64,000 nt of DNA from Candidatus Sigynarchaeum calidifontis (GCA_030587475.2 JAUQYZ020000230.1:1-64000), one strand, 5' to 3'; counted from the stretch's first letter, positions 60 to 7,356 are shown. The notes: generated by a model from the sequence alone, not told the origin. Made by a program: numbers and translations.

Positions 60-503
60 ATGAGCGGATACGATATGAAGGCGCTTGAAGTCGCAACGCC
101 GAAGCGCACGAAGGAAATTATTGCGAAGTACGGGTTCTCGTTCAAGAAAATCGTCCCGTGGGCAATGCTCGCCGGGTTCCTGTCCGGCTTCCTCGGCATC
201 GGCGGGGGCTTGGTCATGGTGCCCGCGTTCACGATCATCTGCACCATGCCCGCGCATGTCGTCGTGGCAACGAGTGGTTTCATGCTGCTCTTTAATTCGC
301 TCGTCGGCACCATCACGAAAATCGCGGTGGATAACGTCGACATCGTGATCGGCTTGATCTTCGCGGCCGGATCGATCTTCGGAGCCCAACTCGGTGCCAA
401 GATCGCCAAGGGAACGAAAAACAACACGCTCAAGAACATCGTCAGCATATTTCTCGTTGCGCTGGCCGTTTACAAGCTCGTCGACATCGCACTCCTTTCA
501 TGA
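60..503 (+). CDS. Chimeric ORF: RsmA/KsgA-like N-terminal ~30 aa joined to the C-terminal half of a TauE/SafE (TSUP) sulfite exporter-family membrane protein
   Basis: ATPKRTKEIIAKYGFSFKK (Bacillales RsmA N-terminus), then AGFLSGFLGIGGGLVMVP...AGSIFGAQLGAKIA (TSUP repeat motifs). Confidence 0.7.
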   Translation: MSGYDMKALEVATPKRTKEIIAKYGFSFKKIVPWAMLAGFLSGFLGIGGGLVMVPAFTIICTMPAHVVVATSGFMLLFNSLVGTITKIAVDNVDIVIGLIFAAGSIFGAQLGAKIAKGTKNNTLKNIVSIFLVALAVYKLVDIALLS

Positions 504-534
504 TCGAAAAGATTTATCCAGGGGAAACGAAAGC

Positions 535-1350
535 ATGGCACGGTTCACGTTCGGTCCAATCCATTCCCGCCGGCTCGGAATGAGCCTTGGTATCAACATT
601 CTTGCCCCGCTGGATGAGCAAAAAAAGCGCTGCACCTTCAACTGCACCTATTGCGAGATCGGTAGAAGCAAGCATGACGAGCTCGTGCCAGTCACGTTCC
701 GATACAACAACACGGACATCGCCCAGTTTCGCGCGGAGGTCGAGCCTCCCATCGCGAACTTGCCCGAGATCGATTCGGCCACGTTCGGGTACATGGGAGA
801 GACGACGCTCGCTTCCGGCCTCGAGCAATACCTCGCCATCGCCAGGGAGATAAAGGAGGCGCATCCCCGGCCCGATGGTGGCCCGCGCCTCTCCGTCTTC
901 ACGAATTCATCGACCCTTGGCGACCCCGGGATCCGCCACGTGCTCGCCAAGTTCGATTTCGTGATGGCCAAGCTGGACTGCGCCTTGCAGCCACTGTTCC
1001 TCAAGGTCAACCGCCCCGACCGCTCGGTACCGCCGGTGGCGACGATCATCGAGAACATCGCCCTTCTCTGCCAGGAGATCCGGAAAAATCCTTCTCATCA
1101 ACTAGCGATCCAAACCTTGCTCTTCAAGTCCATGAACCCGGGCACGCCTTCCAACATGGACGAAGAAAACCTCGCTGCCCTGGCCGATGCCTACGATCGC
1201 ATCGAGCCGCACGTCGTGCAAATATATTCAGTCGCTCGTGATCCCGCGGAGAATGGCATCTACGCGTTCTCGGCCAAGGACAAGGAACGTCTCCGGCAAT
1301 TCTTCGAGCAACACGTGAAACGGAAAAACATCGATATCCGCATCTATTAA
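535..1350 (+). CDS. Radical SAM Fe-S oxidoreductase (COG0731/Tyw1-related family)
   Basis: FGPIHSRRLGMSLGIN N-terminal signature, CTFNCTYC (CxxxCxxC), TNSS and KLD motifs; ATG at 535 chosen as start. Confidence 0.85.
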   Translation: MARFTFGPIHSRRLGMSLGINILAPLDEQKKRCTFNCTYCEIGRSKHDELVPVTFRYNNTDIAQFRAEVEPPIANLPEIDSATFGYMGETTLASGLEQYLAIAREIKEAHPRPDGGPRLSVFTNSSTLGDPGIRHVLAKFDFVMAKLDCALQPLFLKVNRPDRSVPPVATIIENIALLCQEIRKNPSHQLAIQTLLFKSMNPGTPSNMDEENLAALADAYDRIEPHVVQIYSVARDPAENGIYAFSAKDKERLRQFFEQHVKRKNIDIRIY

Positions 1351-1401: not shown

Positions 1402-4400
1402 TTACGAATAGCATGTCCTGTTGATGATCGAACGCTTCAAGTCATCAGTTAAATCCTTGAAATAGGCACAATAGCCCGCGATGCGCACCATCAAGTAGGG
1501 ATATTTTTCCGGATGCTCGTAGGCATCAAGCAAGATCTCACGGTTGATGATGTTGGGCTGGATTTGCATGCCCCCTTTCGTGAGGAACGTTTTCAAGATG
1601 CTCGCCAGGTTGCTCACGCCATCACGACCTTGGAAAAGAGATGAATCGATTGTCAACGTGGCCGTTGTCCCGTTATCCGCGTGGTTCGTGAAATCAACCG
1701 CGGCGATCGCATTCAACGAGGACAGAAGATCCGCTTGTTCCATGCCATAATGCGGGATGATGCTATTTGCAAGCGGGACCCCTTTCAACCGGCCGGATGG
1801 CAACGTCGGGGTCCTTTTCCCGTACATGGTCGCGACGTTCAAGGCGTAATACCCCTCGGAATACCTGCCATTGCGCGGGCAGTTTTCCACGGAATCCAAG
1901 GCCTTGTTATAGATCGCCATCACCTTGCTCACCCAATCCGAAGCTTCGCGGGACGAGTCATCGCCGAATTTCGGTACCGCGAGCAGCGCTTCCTTGATGC
2001 GCTGGTTCTCGTTCCCTTCAAAATCGGCATCGATGGCCTTGATGACTTCCGCGATGGTGTACAAGTGTTTCTTGAAAACGACCTCATCGAGTGCATGTAA
2101 CGAATCCGCGACATCCGTGACTCCAACAGCTTGTATGCCACTGCTGTTCAATACCGTGCCCCCTTCATACACGTCCTTTCCCGTGTCGATACAGCTCTTG
2201 AAAAGCGATGATGCAAGAGGCGTGGTGAAGTTCTTGCGGAGTTCTTGCTCGATGGTCTGGTGATCGGCAAGAATCGATTTTGCTAGCTCGTTCAATCGTG
2301 CCTGGAAACGATCGAGGAGTTCCTCCATGCTGGATGGTGGATTATAGTTAAAACGTCCCAGTTTCTTGGCACGCCGCTTCACCGCCTTGGCGCGTGCCTT
2401 GACAATGGCCTTGGAAATGCGATTGTTTCCCTTGAACGTGTTTTCGATGAAATTCGTGACCAGTTTTTCAAATTGATCGCCAAGCCCGTAGTGCCACAGT
2501 TCATATTCCACTCCTTTCAAGGCTTGCAAGAAAGGCAGGGCAAGATTCATGTTGGCACAATCCGTGTTGCCAAAATGACTATCGGAGGCTGCCGGCTCGA
2601 CGCATCCCACTATCGAGTAATTCCTTGCCTGTTCCACGGTCACGGGATAATGTCGCAAAATGGATTCCACGTAGATATTATCCGCATTTACCTTGGGCTG
2701 GGGAGATCCGTTGAGATATGCCTCTGCAATTCTCTCCAAATAACGAGGCGGGCTGTTTTCATGAACCCTTGCCGACATGTCGATAGAATAGGGCTGCAGC
2801 TCGCAAGCATCCACTAGCATATAGGTGATGTCATTGGTAGCATCGTTTCCATCCTTGTCAACGCCGCCAAATGTCATGGTCTGGTCCACGGACATCGTCT
2901 CGAAGAGCCTGTTGAGATTCAAGACGGAATTGCCATCATTGATCAGGAACACCTCGTCTATCTTGAGAATGAACAAGCAGAGAAGCTCCTTCGCTCTCTC
3001 GTAATCAAGTCTCCCCGCTTCCAAGTCCGCTTTATAATAGGGATACAAGATCTGATCGACGCGACCAAAGGATATTGCATTCTCATAGGATTCGAGACAA
3101 AGCGCGATGTGGAGAAAGAGCATGCTTTGCAAGGCTTCATGATAGGTGCGAGCTGGATATTTTGGGACACGCGTGCAGATCTCGGCCATGTCCTCCAGTT
3201 CCTTGCGACGTTTCGGATCGGATTCCTTCTTGCTCAATTCGACCAAGCTGTCGGCATATCTCTGGGCAAAGGCTTCCAACGCCTCGAGCGCAATGATGGC
3301 GCCGTTGTAAAAATCTTGGTTATTCTCTGGTTTTTCCTTCTGTACCGCCTTGATTTCGTCGATTATGCCCGTCGTTCCCAATTGCAAGATACGCTCGAAA
3401 TTCACGATAAAGTGCGCGATCATCGCCATGTTATTTTCAAAACCAGCGACCATTTCCGCTGCATGCGCGATTCCATAGATAAACCTTTTTAGCGAGTAAA
3501 ATACCTTCCGGAAAAGGCCATGCTTGTACCAGAATGGAAAGATACGGAAATAAGCATACAATATATCCTTCCACGAGCACTTGAAGGAAACCGGCTTTAG
3601 GCGATTTACCCTGAAGAAAAAAACACTCGGAAGATCGCAATAAAGTTCTTCCCACAACTGGCAGGCAACTCTTTTTGCCGTGAAATTTCCGACAAGCAAT
3701 TCTCCGGGATAGATAATTACTTTCTTATATTTCAAAACATAGGCGAGGCGTTCAGCCCTGTGAATGGGGGTTGGCTTCTTGAATCCATTTTTTCTGTAAT
3801 ACTGCGTCTTCAACTTGGATGCCTCGATGCAAACCGCCCGGCCGTAATCCCGTTGGGCTTTTTGTATATCTTTAACTCGCTGCGTGAATTCGGCCGGGTG
3901 CCTGGACGTGTCAAGGTCCGTGTTTTCGGCAGTGATGCCAAGCTGCTTGAACAGTTCAACAGCCTTCCGGATCGATGCCCGGCTCTGGTCGGGGGTGATG
4001 TCGAGCGGTACGAATTCTAGACCAAGGCGCTTGGCTTTATCCTCGTAAAGGTTGTGATATTTCATCAGTTCAATCGAATGGAAATTGATCGATTTCAAGA
4101 AATCTGCGGCTTTACGTATGTTACTCTCGCCATCGTTTAGTCCTGGCACCATCACCATGCGGAACTGGATCTTCACTTTCAAGTCGAGGAGTTTACCCAG
4201 ATTTTCATGGATCAAGGTGCTGTTTTGATTCGTGAGTTTTTTGTGAAGGTCATCGTCGCCGATCACCTTAAGATCGACGAGAAAAAGATCGATGTACGGG
4301 GCTGCCTTGCTGATGGTTTTCCATGGCGCGAAAAGCGATGTTTCGACGATCACGTGAAAGTTCTCTTTTTTTAACGCTTTCAATAATTCGAGGAGATGAG

Positions 4401-4713
4401 CCGGATCTTGGAGGAATGGCTCGCCGCCGCTCAACGTGACCCCGCCATTGGTCGGGGTATAAAAATCCTTGTCTCTGGAAACGATATCCATGATTTTATC
4501 AAGTGAATAATCGCATCCTTGTCCCACGCGACCTTGAAGCGGCTGCATTTCGGGATTTTGGCACCACGCGCATCGCATGTTGCACCCTTGGAAAAAGACC
4601 GTCGTGCGAATCCCGGGACCATCATAAACGCAAGTACGTTGGATTTTAAAGACTTTCAAGCCCTGATCAATCTTGATCGCATGAGGATCCTTTAGATCTT
4701 GCGCTAACAGCAT
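1402..4713 (-). CDS. Fusion of a glycyl-radical activating enzyme (radical SAM) and a glycyl radical enzyme (PFL2/dehydratase-like)
   Basis: N-terminal: DGPGIRTTVFFQGCNMRCAWCQNPE and GGVTLSGGEP. C-terminal: SFGRVDQ, Cys loop IVGCVEP, Gly loop VRIAGYCAYF. One uninterrupted ORF, open to 4767; start uncertain. Confidence 0.9.
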   Translation of the reverse strand: MLLAQDLKDPHAIKIDQGLKVFKIQRTCVYDGPGIRTTVFFQGCNMRCAWCQNPEMQPLQGRVGQGCDYSLDKIMDIVSRDKDFYTPTNGGVTLSGGEPFLQDPAHLLELLKALKKENFHVIVETSLFAPWKTISKAAPYIDLFLVDLKVIGDDDLHKKLTNQNSTLIHENLGKLLDLKVKIQFRMVMVPGLNDGESNIRKAADFLKSINFHSIELMKYHNLYEDKAKRLGLEFVPLDITPDQSRASIRKAVELFKQLGITAENTDLDTSRHPAEFTQRVKDIQKAQRDYGRAVCIEASKLKTQYYRKNGFKKPTPIHRAERLAYVLKYKKVIIYPGELLVGNFTAKRVACQLWEELYCDLPSVFFFRVNRLKPVSFKCSWKDILYAYFRIFPFWYKHGLFRKVFYSLKRFIYGIAHAAEMVAGFENNMAMIAHFIVNFERILQLGTTGIIDEIKAVQKEKPENNQDFYNGAIIALEALEAFAQRYADSLVELSKKESDPKRRKELEDMAEICTRVPKYPARTYHEALQSMLFLHIALCLESYENAISFGRVDQILYPYYKADLEAGRLDYERAKELLCLFILKIDEVFLINDGNSVLNLNRLFETMSVDQTMTFGGVDKDGNDATNDITYMLVDACELQPYSIDMSARVHENSPPRYLERIAEAYLNGSPQPKVNADNIYVESILRHYPVTVEQARNYSIVGCVEPAASDSHFGNTDCANMNLALPFLQALKGVEYELWHYGLGDQFEKLVTNFIENTFKGNNRISKAIVKARAKAVKRRAKKLGRFNYNPPSSMEELLDRFQARLNELAKSILADHQTIEQELRKNFTTPLASSLFKSCIDTGKDVYEGGTVLNSSGIQAVGVTDVADSLHALDEVVFKKHLYTIAEVIKAIDADFEGNENQRIKEALLAVPKFGDDSSREASDWVSKVMAIYNKALDSVENCPRNGRYSEGYYALNVATMYGKRTPTLPSGRLKGVPLANSIIPHYGMEQADLLSSLNAIAAVDFTNHADNGTTATLTIDSSLFQGRDGVSNLASILKTFLTKGGMQIQPNIINREILLDAYEHPEKYPYLMVRIAGYCAYFKDLTDDLKRSIINRTCYS

Positions 4714-5148
4714 TCTAAACTTCTCTTGAACATGTACGGCACGTCGATTTTGAATGATTGTAGGCACATGAAGTCGAAATAGCCACGTTGGTCATCTTCT
4801 TCTTAGTTCGATCATTTATACCTTCGCCCCCAATTCGTAATATGATCGCAAAATCTGGCGTTAAAATAGAATCTTTAATCGGGGGAAAAATGAACGCGTG
4901 GACAGAGCCTCTTTCATTGTGTTTTGAACTTAACTCAAATACATGTGAAAAAATAGGGAAACCTTCAAGGAAAATCGAAATAAATCGCATCGTGTTCAAT
5001 AAAATGCGTCCCTCGCGAGATAACCTGTCGCCGTGCATGTTCCCAATCATGCGATTAAGATTTAATGTGTCGAAATGTTTGTTCAATCATTCGCTTAACT
5101 AAATCTAAGGTATTTTTCTAACTATCTATCGTATTAAAGGTCAAGATA

Positions 5149-7356
5149 ATGAACCGTCGACTCACAATCATCGGATTGTGTTTCGTCGCCGGCTTTTTCG
5201 TCCTACTTTCCATTGGACCTACATTTTTCGCAACAAAAGAATTCATCGCTTCCACAAGTCCTGCTAACATGTCATTTTCCATGCCTGGTGTCAACAGCTT
5301 CTCGCTATCGAGGCTGCCCGACGACCACATCGTCATGTGTTACATCGATGGCGGACACATTTATTGCCGCGAGTCAGACACTCGCGGGGCGAATTGGCAA
5401 GCCCCTTTCTCTATCATCTCGACAAACATTACGAATGCTGATAACTTGTTTACTGCTATCTATAGCTCCGGAGGCAATAACATTCTTTTACTAGCCTGGG
5501 ACGCTGAACCGTCGCTCGGAAACTTGACTAGGCGCGCATTTTATGCAGCCGTGAACTTGATGACCCGGAGCATCGTAAAAATTCCCGCCTTTTGTTCTGA
5601 CGGCAGCGGTTCGGCCATGGAACAGCATCCGACGATTGCCCGCAGCGCTACGGGCGTGTACTACATGGCGTGGCTCGTGAACGCGTCTGGCAATTACAAT
5701 ATAGCTATGAGGAACGGCACCTCGCTCTCGGAATGGGGTGATGTTTCGTCTGTACATCTCGGCAGCGACCACATCTGCTGTCCTAGCATCATGGTCACTT
5801 CATCCGGGAATCCCGAGATCGTATATTCCCGCGCGAACGCGACATCCCAGCAATTGCTCCATCGATCCATACTCGATGGTGTTGATTTCGGCCCGGCTCA
5901 CGTTTTGGTGAACAACACTGCCGGCGGTGCCCGGTTCAAGTGGTTCGATAGCTCCCTTTCCTCCACGGATGACGTGATCGTGTCGTTTTATGGATCGGGA
6001 AAGATTAATGGCGAGGATTTGGCGAATGCTTCGATCATCATCTACGCGACCCGCGAGTCCGGGTTATCTCGCGTAAAAGAGCAAACCGTGGTCGGTTGTA
6101 ACGGGACACGAAGTCTTGCGCATGTTGCCTTTACAAACGATCAAGTTTTCACCATCTGGCTCGAAAACGCTTATAGCGACAGCAGTGACGTACGATTCAT
6201 CATAACCGATTTTGACATGTCGAACAAGAATTCCACTTTCCACAGCATCTTGCTCGCCTACATCATCTTGTCGTGCGGGGCTTTCAACATTTTCGTTTAT
6301 TTCCACTTGAAGAAAAGGAATAAATTGGATGAATCCAGCGAGCCGCTCAACAACCACGCGGTGACCGCTTGTTTCTTCGCGATCGGTATTCTCATGATCA
6401 TCCCTGCCTCGGGTTTCCAGGGAGAGCGGCTCGGCGAGTCCTACGCCGACGGGTTCATTTTCCCGGCACCCATCAACCTCGGGTCGATCATTGTCATAGG
6501 ATTTGTTTTCTTATTCTTCGGGATATCGACCCCCCTCATCGATAAATTCTGGCACCGGGACAAGCGGGAGCAGCGATCCATCTTGCACGTCGAAGCACGG
6601 CCGTTTTCGTGGAAGCAAGAAGTCCTGCGCAAATTACCGCACGTGATCATGTTCCTCCTCGTGTTCGGCTTCGATCCGATCGGATCCAGCGCCATGCAAT
6701 ATGTTAATATCCAGAAATATGACCGGTACAATTTCATGAACGAGGGTGGCATCATCTTCGATTACGTGCTGCGGCTCAACAACATCGAGATCGGGAGCTA
6801 TGCGGTGAAGTTAATGATGGTATCGGGCATGATCTTCCTCTGGATCCTCGATCTACACGTGCTGCTGGCCTCGCCCACCACGTACTATTTCGCGAAGGAT
6901 TATTTCATCCTAGCGTTCAGGAAAAAGGAGCGCTCGTCGATGGCGGATTTTATCGTCATGTTCTCGTCCTTGTTGCTCATGATTCTCATATTGACGTATC
7001 ACCCCCAGTACAAGCTACAAGGTTCCTTCGTGAGCTTCGCTGGCTTCGGCGTGCTATGCTTTGGTGACACGGCGGGAATGATCTTCGGCCGCATCTTCGG
7101 CAAGCACAAGCTATGGAAAGGTTCGATCAAGTCCTGGGAAGGCGCGATCGCGGGAACGGTCGTGGCCTTCATCGCGTCCCTTTTTTTCATCGAATGGCCG
7201 TTCGCGCTGATAATGGCTGGCATTTACCTTGCCGTTGATATAATCACGTCGCGCGTGCCGATCTCAGATAATTTTCTCATCCCGATCTTAACGGCTCTTA
7301 TATTCTTGCCATTGCTCCCACTCGTCCAATCTCCGCTAACTGGCCTATACACGTGA
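5149..7356 (+). CDS. Membrane protein with an extracytoplasmic BNR/beta-propeller-like domain fused to a dolichol/phytol kinase (SEC59/DGK1/VTE5-like) domain
   Basis: N-terminal signal/TM segment, Asp-box-like RESDTRGANW, many NxS/T sequons. C-terminal RKLPH, FGDTAGMIFGRIFGKHK..KSWEG and DNFLIP motifs. Confidence 0.8.
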   Translation: MNRRLTIIGLCFVAGFFVLLSIGPTFFATKEFIASTSPANMSFSMPGVNSFSLSRLPDDHIVMCYIDGGHIYCRESDTRGANWQAPFSIISTNITNADNLFTAIYSSGGNNILLLAWDAEPSLGNLTRRAFYAAVNLMTRSIVKIPAFCSDGSGSAMEQHPTIARSATGVYYMAWLVNASGNYNIAMRNGTSLSEWGDVSSVHLGSDHICCPSIMVTSSGNPEIVYSRANATSQQLLHRSILDGVDFGPAHVLVNNTAGGARFKWFDSSLSSTDDVIVSFYGSGKINGEDLANASIIIYATRESGLSRVKEQTVVGCNGTRSLAHVAFTNDQVFTIWLENAYSDSSDVRFIITDFDMSNKNSTFHSILLAYIILSCGAFNIFVYFHLKKRNKLDESSEPLNNHAVTACFFAIGILMIIPASGFQGERLGESYADGFIFPAPINLGSIIVIGFVFLFFGISTPLIDKFWHRDKREQRSILHVEARPFSWKQEVLRKLPHVIMFLLVFGFDPIGSSAMQYVNIQKYDRYNFMNEGGIIFDYVLRLNNIEIGSYAVKLMMVSGMIFLWILDLHVLLASPTTYYFAKDYFILAFRKKERSSMADFIVMFSSLLLMILILTYHPQYKLQGSFVSFAGFGVLCFGDTAGMIFGRIFGKHKLWKGSIKSWEGAIAGTVVAFIASLFFIEWPFALIMAGIYLAVDIITSRVPISDNFLIPILTALIFLPLLPLVQSPLTGLYT

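Follow-up and report, generated by a model that had tools for sequence, protein, structure and literature searches.

In a 64,000-nucleotide stretch of DNA from Candidatus Sigynarchaeum calidifontis (GCA_030587475.2 JAUQYZ020000230.1:1-64000; hereafter, the window), we analysed a minus-strand gene that encodes, in a single polypeptide, a radical S-adenosylmethionine (SAM) activase followed by an oxygen-sensitive glycyl radical enzyme (GRE). The original prediction, made from the sequence alone, had placed a stop-free open reading frame (ORF) of about 1100 amino acids at 1402–4767, and the ORF listing and translation bear this out: the minus strand of this interval is a single ORF with zero internal stops, 1121 amino acids long when counted from a GTG (P0001) and 1103 when counted from an ATG. 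The ATG, at 4716, is likely the true start, and we prefer it because both the N-termini of the homologs and an identical database protein, P0389, begin there. Two numberings are used below: P0001, which starts at the GTG at 4767, for window coordinates, and P0002, which equals P0001 minus 18, for alignment positions. The gene comprises the following features, among which CNMRCAWC, SGGEP, the linker, GCVEP and RIAGY were each found where they had been predicted to lie:

1402–4716, minus strand: coding sequence of the fused activase–GRE, 1103 amino acids from the ATG at 4716, stop codon at 1402–1404
3928–4662, minus strand: short-form GRE activase (radical SAM) domain, P0001 ~36–280, Pfam Radical_SAM/Fer4_12, without a ferredoxin-like insert
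4606–4623, minus strand: DGPGIR, the conserved N-terminal motif of GRE activases, P0001 49–54, within the predicted interface with the glycyl radical domain
4561–4584, minus strand: CX3CX2C (CNMRCAWC), predicted [4Fe-4S]/SAM cluster motif, Cys62, Cys66 and Cys69 in P0001
4417–4431, minus strand: SGGEP, the SAM-binding GGE motif, read in the translation
3886–3927, minus strand: linker between activase and GRE, ~14 residues, P0001 281–294, flanked in the model by the final strand of the activase and the opening helix of the GRE
1819–3885, minus strand: PFL-like ten-stranded barrel domain (Pfam PF02901, E 3.7e-127; Foldseek)
2593–2607, minus strand: Cys loop GCVEP (CXE motif), with the putative thiyl-radical Cys722 and general-base Glu724, aligning to the Cys loop of glycerol and propanediol dehydratases and of A. 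fulgidus PFL2
2335–2475, minus strand: family-specific basic helical insertion in the GRE barrel, ~45 residues, P0002 ~747–793
1459–1767, minus strand: glycyl radical domain (Pfam PF01228, E 1.5e-19)
1471–1485, minus strand: Gly loop RIAGY, with the putative radical glycine Gly1098 in P0001 (G1080 in P0002)

The Pfam matches are Fer4_12/Radical_SAM at residues 49–214, PFL-like at 295–983 (426 bits) and Gly_radical at 1001–1103 (70.9 bits). The activase half passes the curated threshold of the NCBIfam model for GRE activases, TIGR02494 (216.2 bits, cut-off 174.35), and contains the entire GRE-activase motif set, that is CX3CX2C, GGE and an N-terminal DGxGxR. The TIGR02494 alignment covers profile positions 1–38 and 101–292 only; as positions 39–100 are unmatched, the ferredoxin-like insert is absent from the activase half, which supports the view that this is a complete short-form activase. 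The GRE half of the same chain is complete as well, as had been proposed: PF02901 and PF01228 are both matched with both loops intact, and the sequence has the barrel domain, the C-terminal domain with an R(V/I)xG(Y/F)-type Gly loop and the Cys-loop cysteine that mark a PFL-like GRE. The G+C content of the gene (0.44–0.53) is inside the range of the surrounding DNA and gives no compositional sign of recent transfer.

The fusion is genuine and not an artefact, as confirmed by its recurrence in independent contigs and in relatives. The 90% identity cluster of the protein has six members on six different contigs, with the junction uninterrupted in all of them; four are 1103 amino acids long, and two are ENA gene calls of 1058 amino acids that start 45 residues later. 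The cluster includes the window’s own protein, two members that differ from it by 1 and 2 residues, and one, ~91% identical, that carries the name Candidatus Sigynarchaeum springense. A homolog search using the first 420 residues as a query against proteins of 616–1962 amino acids returned 572 matches, and the junction is spanned in 120 of the 120 listed. The listed homologs are 56–72% identical to the window protein, and nearly all full-length ones (~1090–1115 amino acids) have the same four-domain layout; Radical_SAM, PFL-like and Gly_radical thus recur in one chain across homologs. Named sources include Promethearchaeota/Lokiarchaeota, Hodarchaeota, Smithella, Syntrophaceae, Desulfobacterales, a spirochaete, Christensenellales and Eubacteriales, and the database labels of the fused homologs read just ‘pyruvate formate lyase family protein’ or ‘radical SAM protein’. 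An exact-peptide-pattern locus search with one junction-spanning protein gave five loci, a number that is unsuitable as a count.

Homologs that are always split, which the original prediction had named as the outcome that would speak against a fusion, were not seen. Three relatives looked split (P0138, P0158 and P0140, each a free activase, at 50–62% identity, followed by a GRE gene), and tblastn led us to reject them as genuine split genes: they are frameshifted or broken copies, since homology continues in another reading frame in all three. Two loci from related ENA samples (L017:5001-8346 and L019:5001-8281) carry the fused gene broken by one and two frameshifts, respectively; gene callers render these broken copies as separate activase and GRE genes, and they could be mistaken for split forms.

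We next consider conservation, using an alignment of 56 fused homologs in P0002 numbering, in which mean column identity is 74%. In the activase half, the cluster cysteines C44, C48 and C51 are invariant, as are D31, G32 and G34 of DGPGIR (P33 and R36 are kept in at least 96%) and G96, G97 and P99 of GGEP, where position 98 is either E or D. In the GRE half, all five residues of GCVEP (G703–P707, including C704-V-E706) are invariant, and His434, Asp718 and Tyr956, together with R1077, A1079, G1080 and Y1081 of the Gly loop, are invariant or nearly so. This pattern points to strong purifying selection on both catalytic halves. The linker is partly conserved too, with L267 and A274 at 91% and F276 and R279 at 100%, and is more than a loose tether.

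The genome encodes five GRE genes: two fused activase–GREs, two classical pairs in which the GRE is followed by its activase, and one GRE truncated at the end of a contig. The GRE-bearing contig intervals besides the window are:

C265:7688-11038; C226:14013-17549; C266:4596-8545; C182:20390-22189

The truncated GRE is that of C182, beside which no activase was seen. Both complete unfused GREs have a long-form activase downstream, whereas in both fused genes the activase comes first, the reverse of the classical pairs. The nearest free short activases (42–47% identity) lie directly downstream of another gene, which in one case, with the DNA at hand, is the 3′ end of a GRE. Because unfused pairs run in this opposite order, GRE then activase, the loss of a stop codon between neighbours cannot yield the fused protein.

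The fused gene is monocistronic in every context examined, and no conserved neighbours other than the fused gene itself are shared among three bacterial loci, or among four Asgard loci compared by all-against-all BLAST. In the window, the product of a convergent gene at 394–1350 (plus strand) is radical SAM-like, with a CTFNCTYC sequence and one weak Pfam match below the cut-off; it has no NCBIfam match, and its gene does not lie beside the fused gene in the relatives examined. The divergent neighbour at 5149–7356 (plus strand; 735 amino acids) has only a C-terminal CTP_transf_1-like match, and we saw no link between it and the GRE.

In a FastTree phylogeny of 58 sequences, all named archaeal members fall in one clade of 23 (support 100), with the window protein and the genome’s paralog in different archaeal subclades. 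The archaeal clade groups with Firmicutes and spirochaete sequences, and this larger group is sister to a Smithella/Syntrophaceae clade; archaeal and bacterial members are 61–72% identical. A junction-spanning query matches 3 of the 201 sampled genomes of the phylum, this one included, and the distribution is therefore patchy. A long branch separates the short-form family from P0301, a long-form fusion of 1095 amino acids with Radical_SAM, PFL-like and Gly_radical matches in Pfam. The short-form family may have lost the ferredoxin insert after fusion, because P0301 aligns with it from end to end yet retains the insert. Together with P0339, P0263 and P0248, P0301 forms a second, likewise uncharacterised activase-first fusion lineage with a ferredoxin insert, at 33% identity over the full length. 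Separately, an ESM Atlas cluster of 56 proteins of ~1133 amino acids, nearly all with Gly_radical, PFL-like and Fer4_12, is labelled 75% Eukaryota, mostly diatoms; eukaryotic activase–PFL-type fusions may thus exist, which we take as a lead only.

As to the type of reaction, the GRE half appears from its sequence to be of the PFL2/CXE (eliminase or isomerase) type, the CXE motif being common to eliminase and isomerase GREs (2026 GRE review). The pocket is probably most like that of A. fulgidus PFL2, judging by the ESYENAIS...GRVDQ segment, which is closer to that protein than to glycerol or propanediol dehydratases. The GHS of the diol-dehydratase GHSIS segment is replaced by an invariant ENA (ENAIS), so that the His-Ser pair becomes Asn-Ala; the fused protein thus lacks the diol-dehydratase pocket signature, and A. 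fulgidus PFL2 has Gln-Ala (EQAIS) at this place. A residue-by-residue alignment shows that the counterparts of His164, Cys433, Glu435, Asp447 and Tyr640 of glycerol dehydratase are retained, with the glycerol dehydratase residues numbered by counting along the alignment. The basic insertion of ~45 residues does not align with 9rco, 1r8w or 2f3o; it has no counterpart in any solved GRE or in the long-form fusion P0301 and is specific to the short-form fused family.

The full-length AlphaFold2 (AF2) model has a mean predicted local distance difference test (pLDDT) value of 86.2 and a predicted template modelling (TM) score (pTM) of 0.88. Foldseek matches the GRE part to propanediol/glycerol dehydratases and A. 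fulgidus PFL2 with target-normalised TM-scores of 0.86–0.93, and found no solved chain that covers the whole fused protein (best query-normalised TM-score 0.66). The basic insertion is modelled as two amphipathic helices (pLDDT 83–92).

We also predicted the complex of the two halves supplied as separate chains, residues 25–262 and 342–1103, dropping the first 66 GRE residues to stay within a 1000-residue limit. The prediction scored 0.74, as compared to 0.00 for the best of three controls; this mark is attained in 58 of 80 solved complexes, as against 2 of 110 mismatched pairs, counts that hold only roughly here because our own alignment was supplied. Three runs share 100% of the contacts, with a partner pLDDT of at least 83. 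The confident contacts join activase residues 26–27, 29, 33–35 (the DGPGIR stretch) and 80–88 to GRE residues 919, 995–1001, 1026–1046 and 1102, nearly all of the latter within the glycyl radical domain, and interface positions are somewhat more conserved (0.83–0.87) than the protein average (0.77). The DGPGIR face of the activase is thus predicted to rest on surface helices of the glycyl radical domain. A memorised activase–GRE template is an unlikely source of this result, since the 2026 GRE review names PFL-AE as the sole activase with an experimental structure. At one position of the predicted interface (window 4462–4464, minus strand; P0002 84) the window copy has Phe, as compared to Tyr in 98% of the family.

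Taken together, we consider that the gene very probably specifies a natural single-chain glycyl radical system, a member of a conserved and uncharacterised family of ~1100 amino acids, and that the protein is likely self-activating. The N-terminal domain would bind one [4Fe-4S] cluster via Cys62, Cys66 and Cys69, and an external flavodoxin or ferredoxin would reduce this cluster. The activase domain would then cleave SAM, and the 5′-deoxyadenosyl radical would take a hydrogen from Gly1098 after the glycyl radical domain swings out of the barrel; what bears on these two steps is the predicted docking of the motif face of the activase on that domain. The glycyl radical would in turn generate a thiyl radical on Cys722 for attack on a hydroxylated substrate, with Glu724 as the base. 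The activase would be parked at its target at a 1:1 ratio through a defined interface. It may act on its own chain or on the partner chain of a dimer, and trans activation between two fused chains is fully possible in such a system. Since the fused gene travels alone, without an operon, the system would be transferable as a single gene.

A more specific version, which we put forward tentatively and do not favour strongly, is that the fusion is a permanently assembled complex, and more than two tethered enzymes, in which the activase is seated on the glycyl radical domain by its DGPGIR face, the Gly loop need only swing between the barrel and the adjacent SAM site, the enzyme rearms itself in cis, and the loss of the ferredoxin domain and the gain of the basic insertion are linked adaptations; the basic helix might, for instance, serve to recruit an acidic flavodoxin or ferredoxin. 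Were it true, it would provide a natural, stoichiometric and structurally tractable snapshot of GRE activation, in which a lost radical is reinstalled at once.

Several observations weigh against a working, self-activating enzyme or against parts of the scheme above. We infer radical formation, cluster content and substrate for every member of the family. Both chains of the predicted complex come from one natural polypeptide and were perfectly paired in the alignment, and the score is the model’s own confidence. Gly1080 is absent from the listed contacts, and the prediction therefore shows docking in a closed state, the activase being parked on the domain that it targets. The Cys-loop region is of low confidence in the AF2 model (pLDDT 50–67 for residues 701–720). 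As for the reaction, the GRE half scores 451.6 against a cut-off of 678.2 for the PFL2/glycerol dehydratase subfamily (TIGR01774), and the best NCBIfam equivalog, among those for glycerol-dehydratase-type dehydratases, HypD, CutC, sulfopropanediol dehydratase and PflD/YbiW, reaches 345.9 against 1000; as these scores all fall below the curated cut-offs, the reaction class is only a resemblance. Finally, the window copy itself has a Glu (GAG at 1855–1857, minus strand; P0001 971, P0002 953) where 55 of the 56 relatives, two near-identical cluster mates and the cluster representative have Ala. This residue lies three residues ahead of an invariant Tyr, the counterpart in the alignment of active-site Tyr640 in glycerol dehydratase, and Glu971 may reflect strain variation, a base error or a change that impairs the enzyme.

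Other explanations of the locus fare differently. That a sequencing or assembly error, or a chimeric contig, made one gene out of adjacent activase and GRE genes has next to no chance of being correct: indel-broken copies of the family do occur in long-read assemblies (L017 and L019), but the errors observed break frames rather than join them. The five other contigs with proteins at least 90% identical are unbroken at the junction, the 120 listed homologs span it at only 56–72% identity, invariant residues lie inside the linker itself, and the second fused paralog sits on another contig of the same genome; this explanation is effectively refuted already. It is also very improbable that the N-terminal domain is a decayed radical SAM remnant whose only part is to stabilise or regulate the GRE, with the radical installed by a separate activase. 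The domain does lack the ferredoxin-like domain found in most non-PFL, non-RNR (ribonucleotide reductase) activases, the loop at the site of the insert is modelled with low confidence (pLDDT 53–61, residues 51–70), and the genome encodes two free activases. However, PFL-AE and the RNR activase function without a ferredoxin domain, the N-terminal domain scores above the curated activase cut-off, and its cluster cysteines, GGEP and DGPGIR vary little or not at all among members from archaea and bacteria alike.

A third explanation is that of an activase domain that mainly serves other proteins, either as a general activase for free GREs such as that of C182 or by acting strictly between chains, with the fusion being there only for co-expression and transfer as a single gene rather than for activation within the chain. 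GREs form homodimers, and activation by activases ordinarily takes place in trans (2026 GRE review), the C182 GRE has no visible adjoining activase, and a gene that is monocistronic in all contexts examined fits selection for portability. Nevertheless, the two complete unfused GREs of the genome own downstream activases, the activase and GRE halves are conserved jointly, the linker that connects them is invariant in part, and the substrate-binding face of the activase is predicted, confidently and reproducibly, to form an interface with the type of glycyl radical domain found in its own chain. We regard this explanation, in either form, as unlikely, and favour the self-activating single-chain system.

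How does the fusion relate to what has been described? According to the original prediction, characterised GREs rely on a separate activase, and the 2026 GRE review, in which the terms ‘fusion’ and ‘fused’ do not occur, is in agreement. The conserved PFL-like activase–GRE fusion family, encoded by hundreds of uncultured anaerobes, is apparently unstudied in the literature. At sequence level, GRE–activase fusions have a precedent in the eukaryotic NrdD-NrdG, and the P0301 lineage is a further, long-form one. Our full-text literature search for published GRE–activase fusions found only eukaryotic NrdD-NrdG, with the caveat that most subscription journals are outside its coverage and absence from it is no proof. 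The NrdD-NrdG fusions form one ORF and are known from sequence only, and for them fusion has been proposed to help fixation after horizontal transfer (Lundin et al. 2010, PMC3019208).

The fused protein could offer, within one chain, a model for an activation step never seen structurally. Activase access to the glycine, ~20 Å inside the folded GRE, is known only from a free activase with a 7-residue peptide, and how the glycyl radical domain gets back to the active site inside the protein is not well understood (2026 review). With activase and GRE naturally joined 1:1 in one covalent unit, a short linker that is invariant in part and an interface predicted with confidence, the protein is a ready target for cryo-electron microscopy or crystallography, and cis and trans activation can be told apart cleanly with it. 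At a 1:1 ratio of activase to PFL the radical is installed faster and is also lost faster (2026 GRE review), and the fused 1:1 system bears on this reported trade-off. According to the same review, only PFL-AE and RNR-AE are without a ferredoxin domain; here, a non-PFL, non-RNR GRE is apparently able to dispense with that domain in its activase. A one-gene GRE would, furthermore, be convenient for heterologous expression. The conservation of the enzyme in syntrophs and Asgard archaea without operon partners points to a reaction in anaerobic sediments that needs no dedicated partner genes.

Among known GREs, A. fulgidus PFL2 (2f3o) is the best structural fit to the fused GRE (target-normalised TM-score 0.93, root-mean-square deviation 3.0). 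Like the fused GRE, it is PFL2-type, with a single cysteine and a CXE Cys loop, and the two align over the pocket segment YE(N/Q)AIS...GR(V/I)DQ, at the histidine of (I/V)(A/S)H and along the Gly loop. Unlike the fused protein, it is 776 amino acids long, lacks the activase domain (which is encoded separately) and the basic insertion of ~45 residues, and is only ~27% identical; we found no substrate assigned to it, and hence it gives the fused enzyme no reaction. B12-independent glycerol dehydratase (1r8w) and 1,2-propanediol dehydratase (5i2a, 9rco) are the top matches in sequence and fold (E ~1e-90, target-normalised TM-score 0.86–0.90). These dehydratases use a separate activase with a ferredoxin domain, whereas the fused protein has an N-terminal activase without one; they carry GHSIS where the fused family has ENAIS, and the score of the fused protein against every dehydratase equivalog is far below the cut-off.

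For the activase half, the closest known counterpart is E. coli PFL-AE (3c8f/3cb8), which likewise consists of the radical SAM domain only, with CX3CX2C, DGPGIR and GGE, and of which 3c8f matches residues 28–251 of the fused protein (E 7e-28). PFL-AE, however, is a free protein of 245 amino acids that acts catalytically on PFL, whose Cys loop has two cysteines, while the fused activase half has a GRE of the CXE type as its covalent 1:1 partner. Eukaryotic NrdD-NrdG shares with the window gene the combination of a GRE and a radical SAM activase in one ORF, but it is an anaerobic RNR, belonging to another GRE class than the PFL-like one, and has been reported only in eukaryotes. The name NrdDG presumably places the GRE first and the activase last, which would be the reverse of the order in the fused family. 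The long-form fusion P0301, finally, has the same domain order, aligns across the junction and is 33% identical, but keeps the ferredoxin insert and lacks the basic insertion of the GRE.

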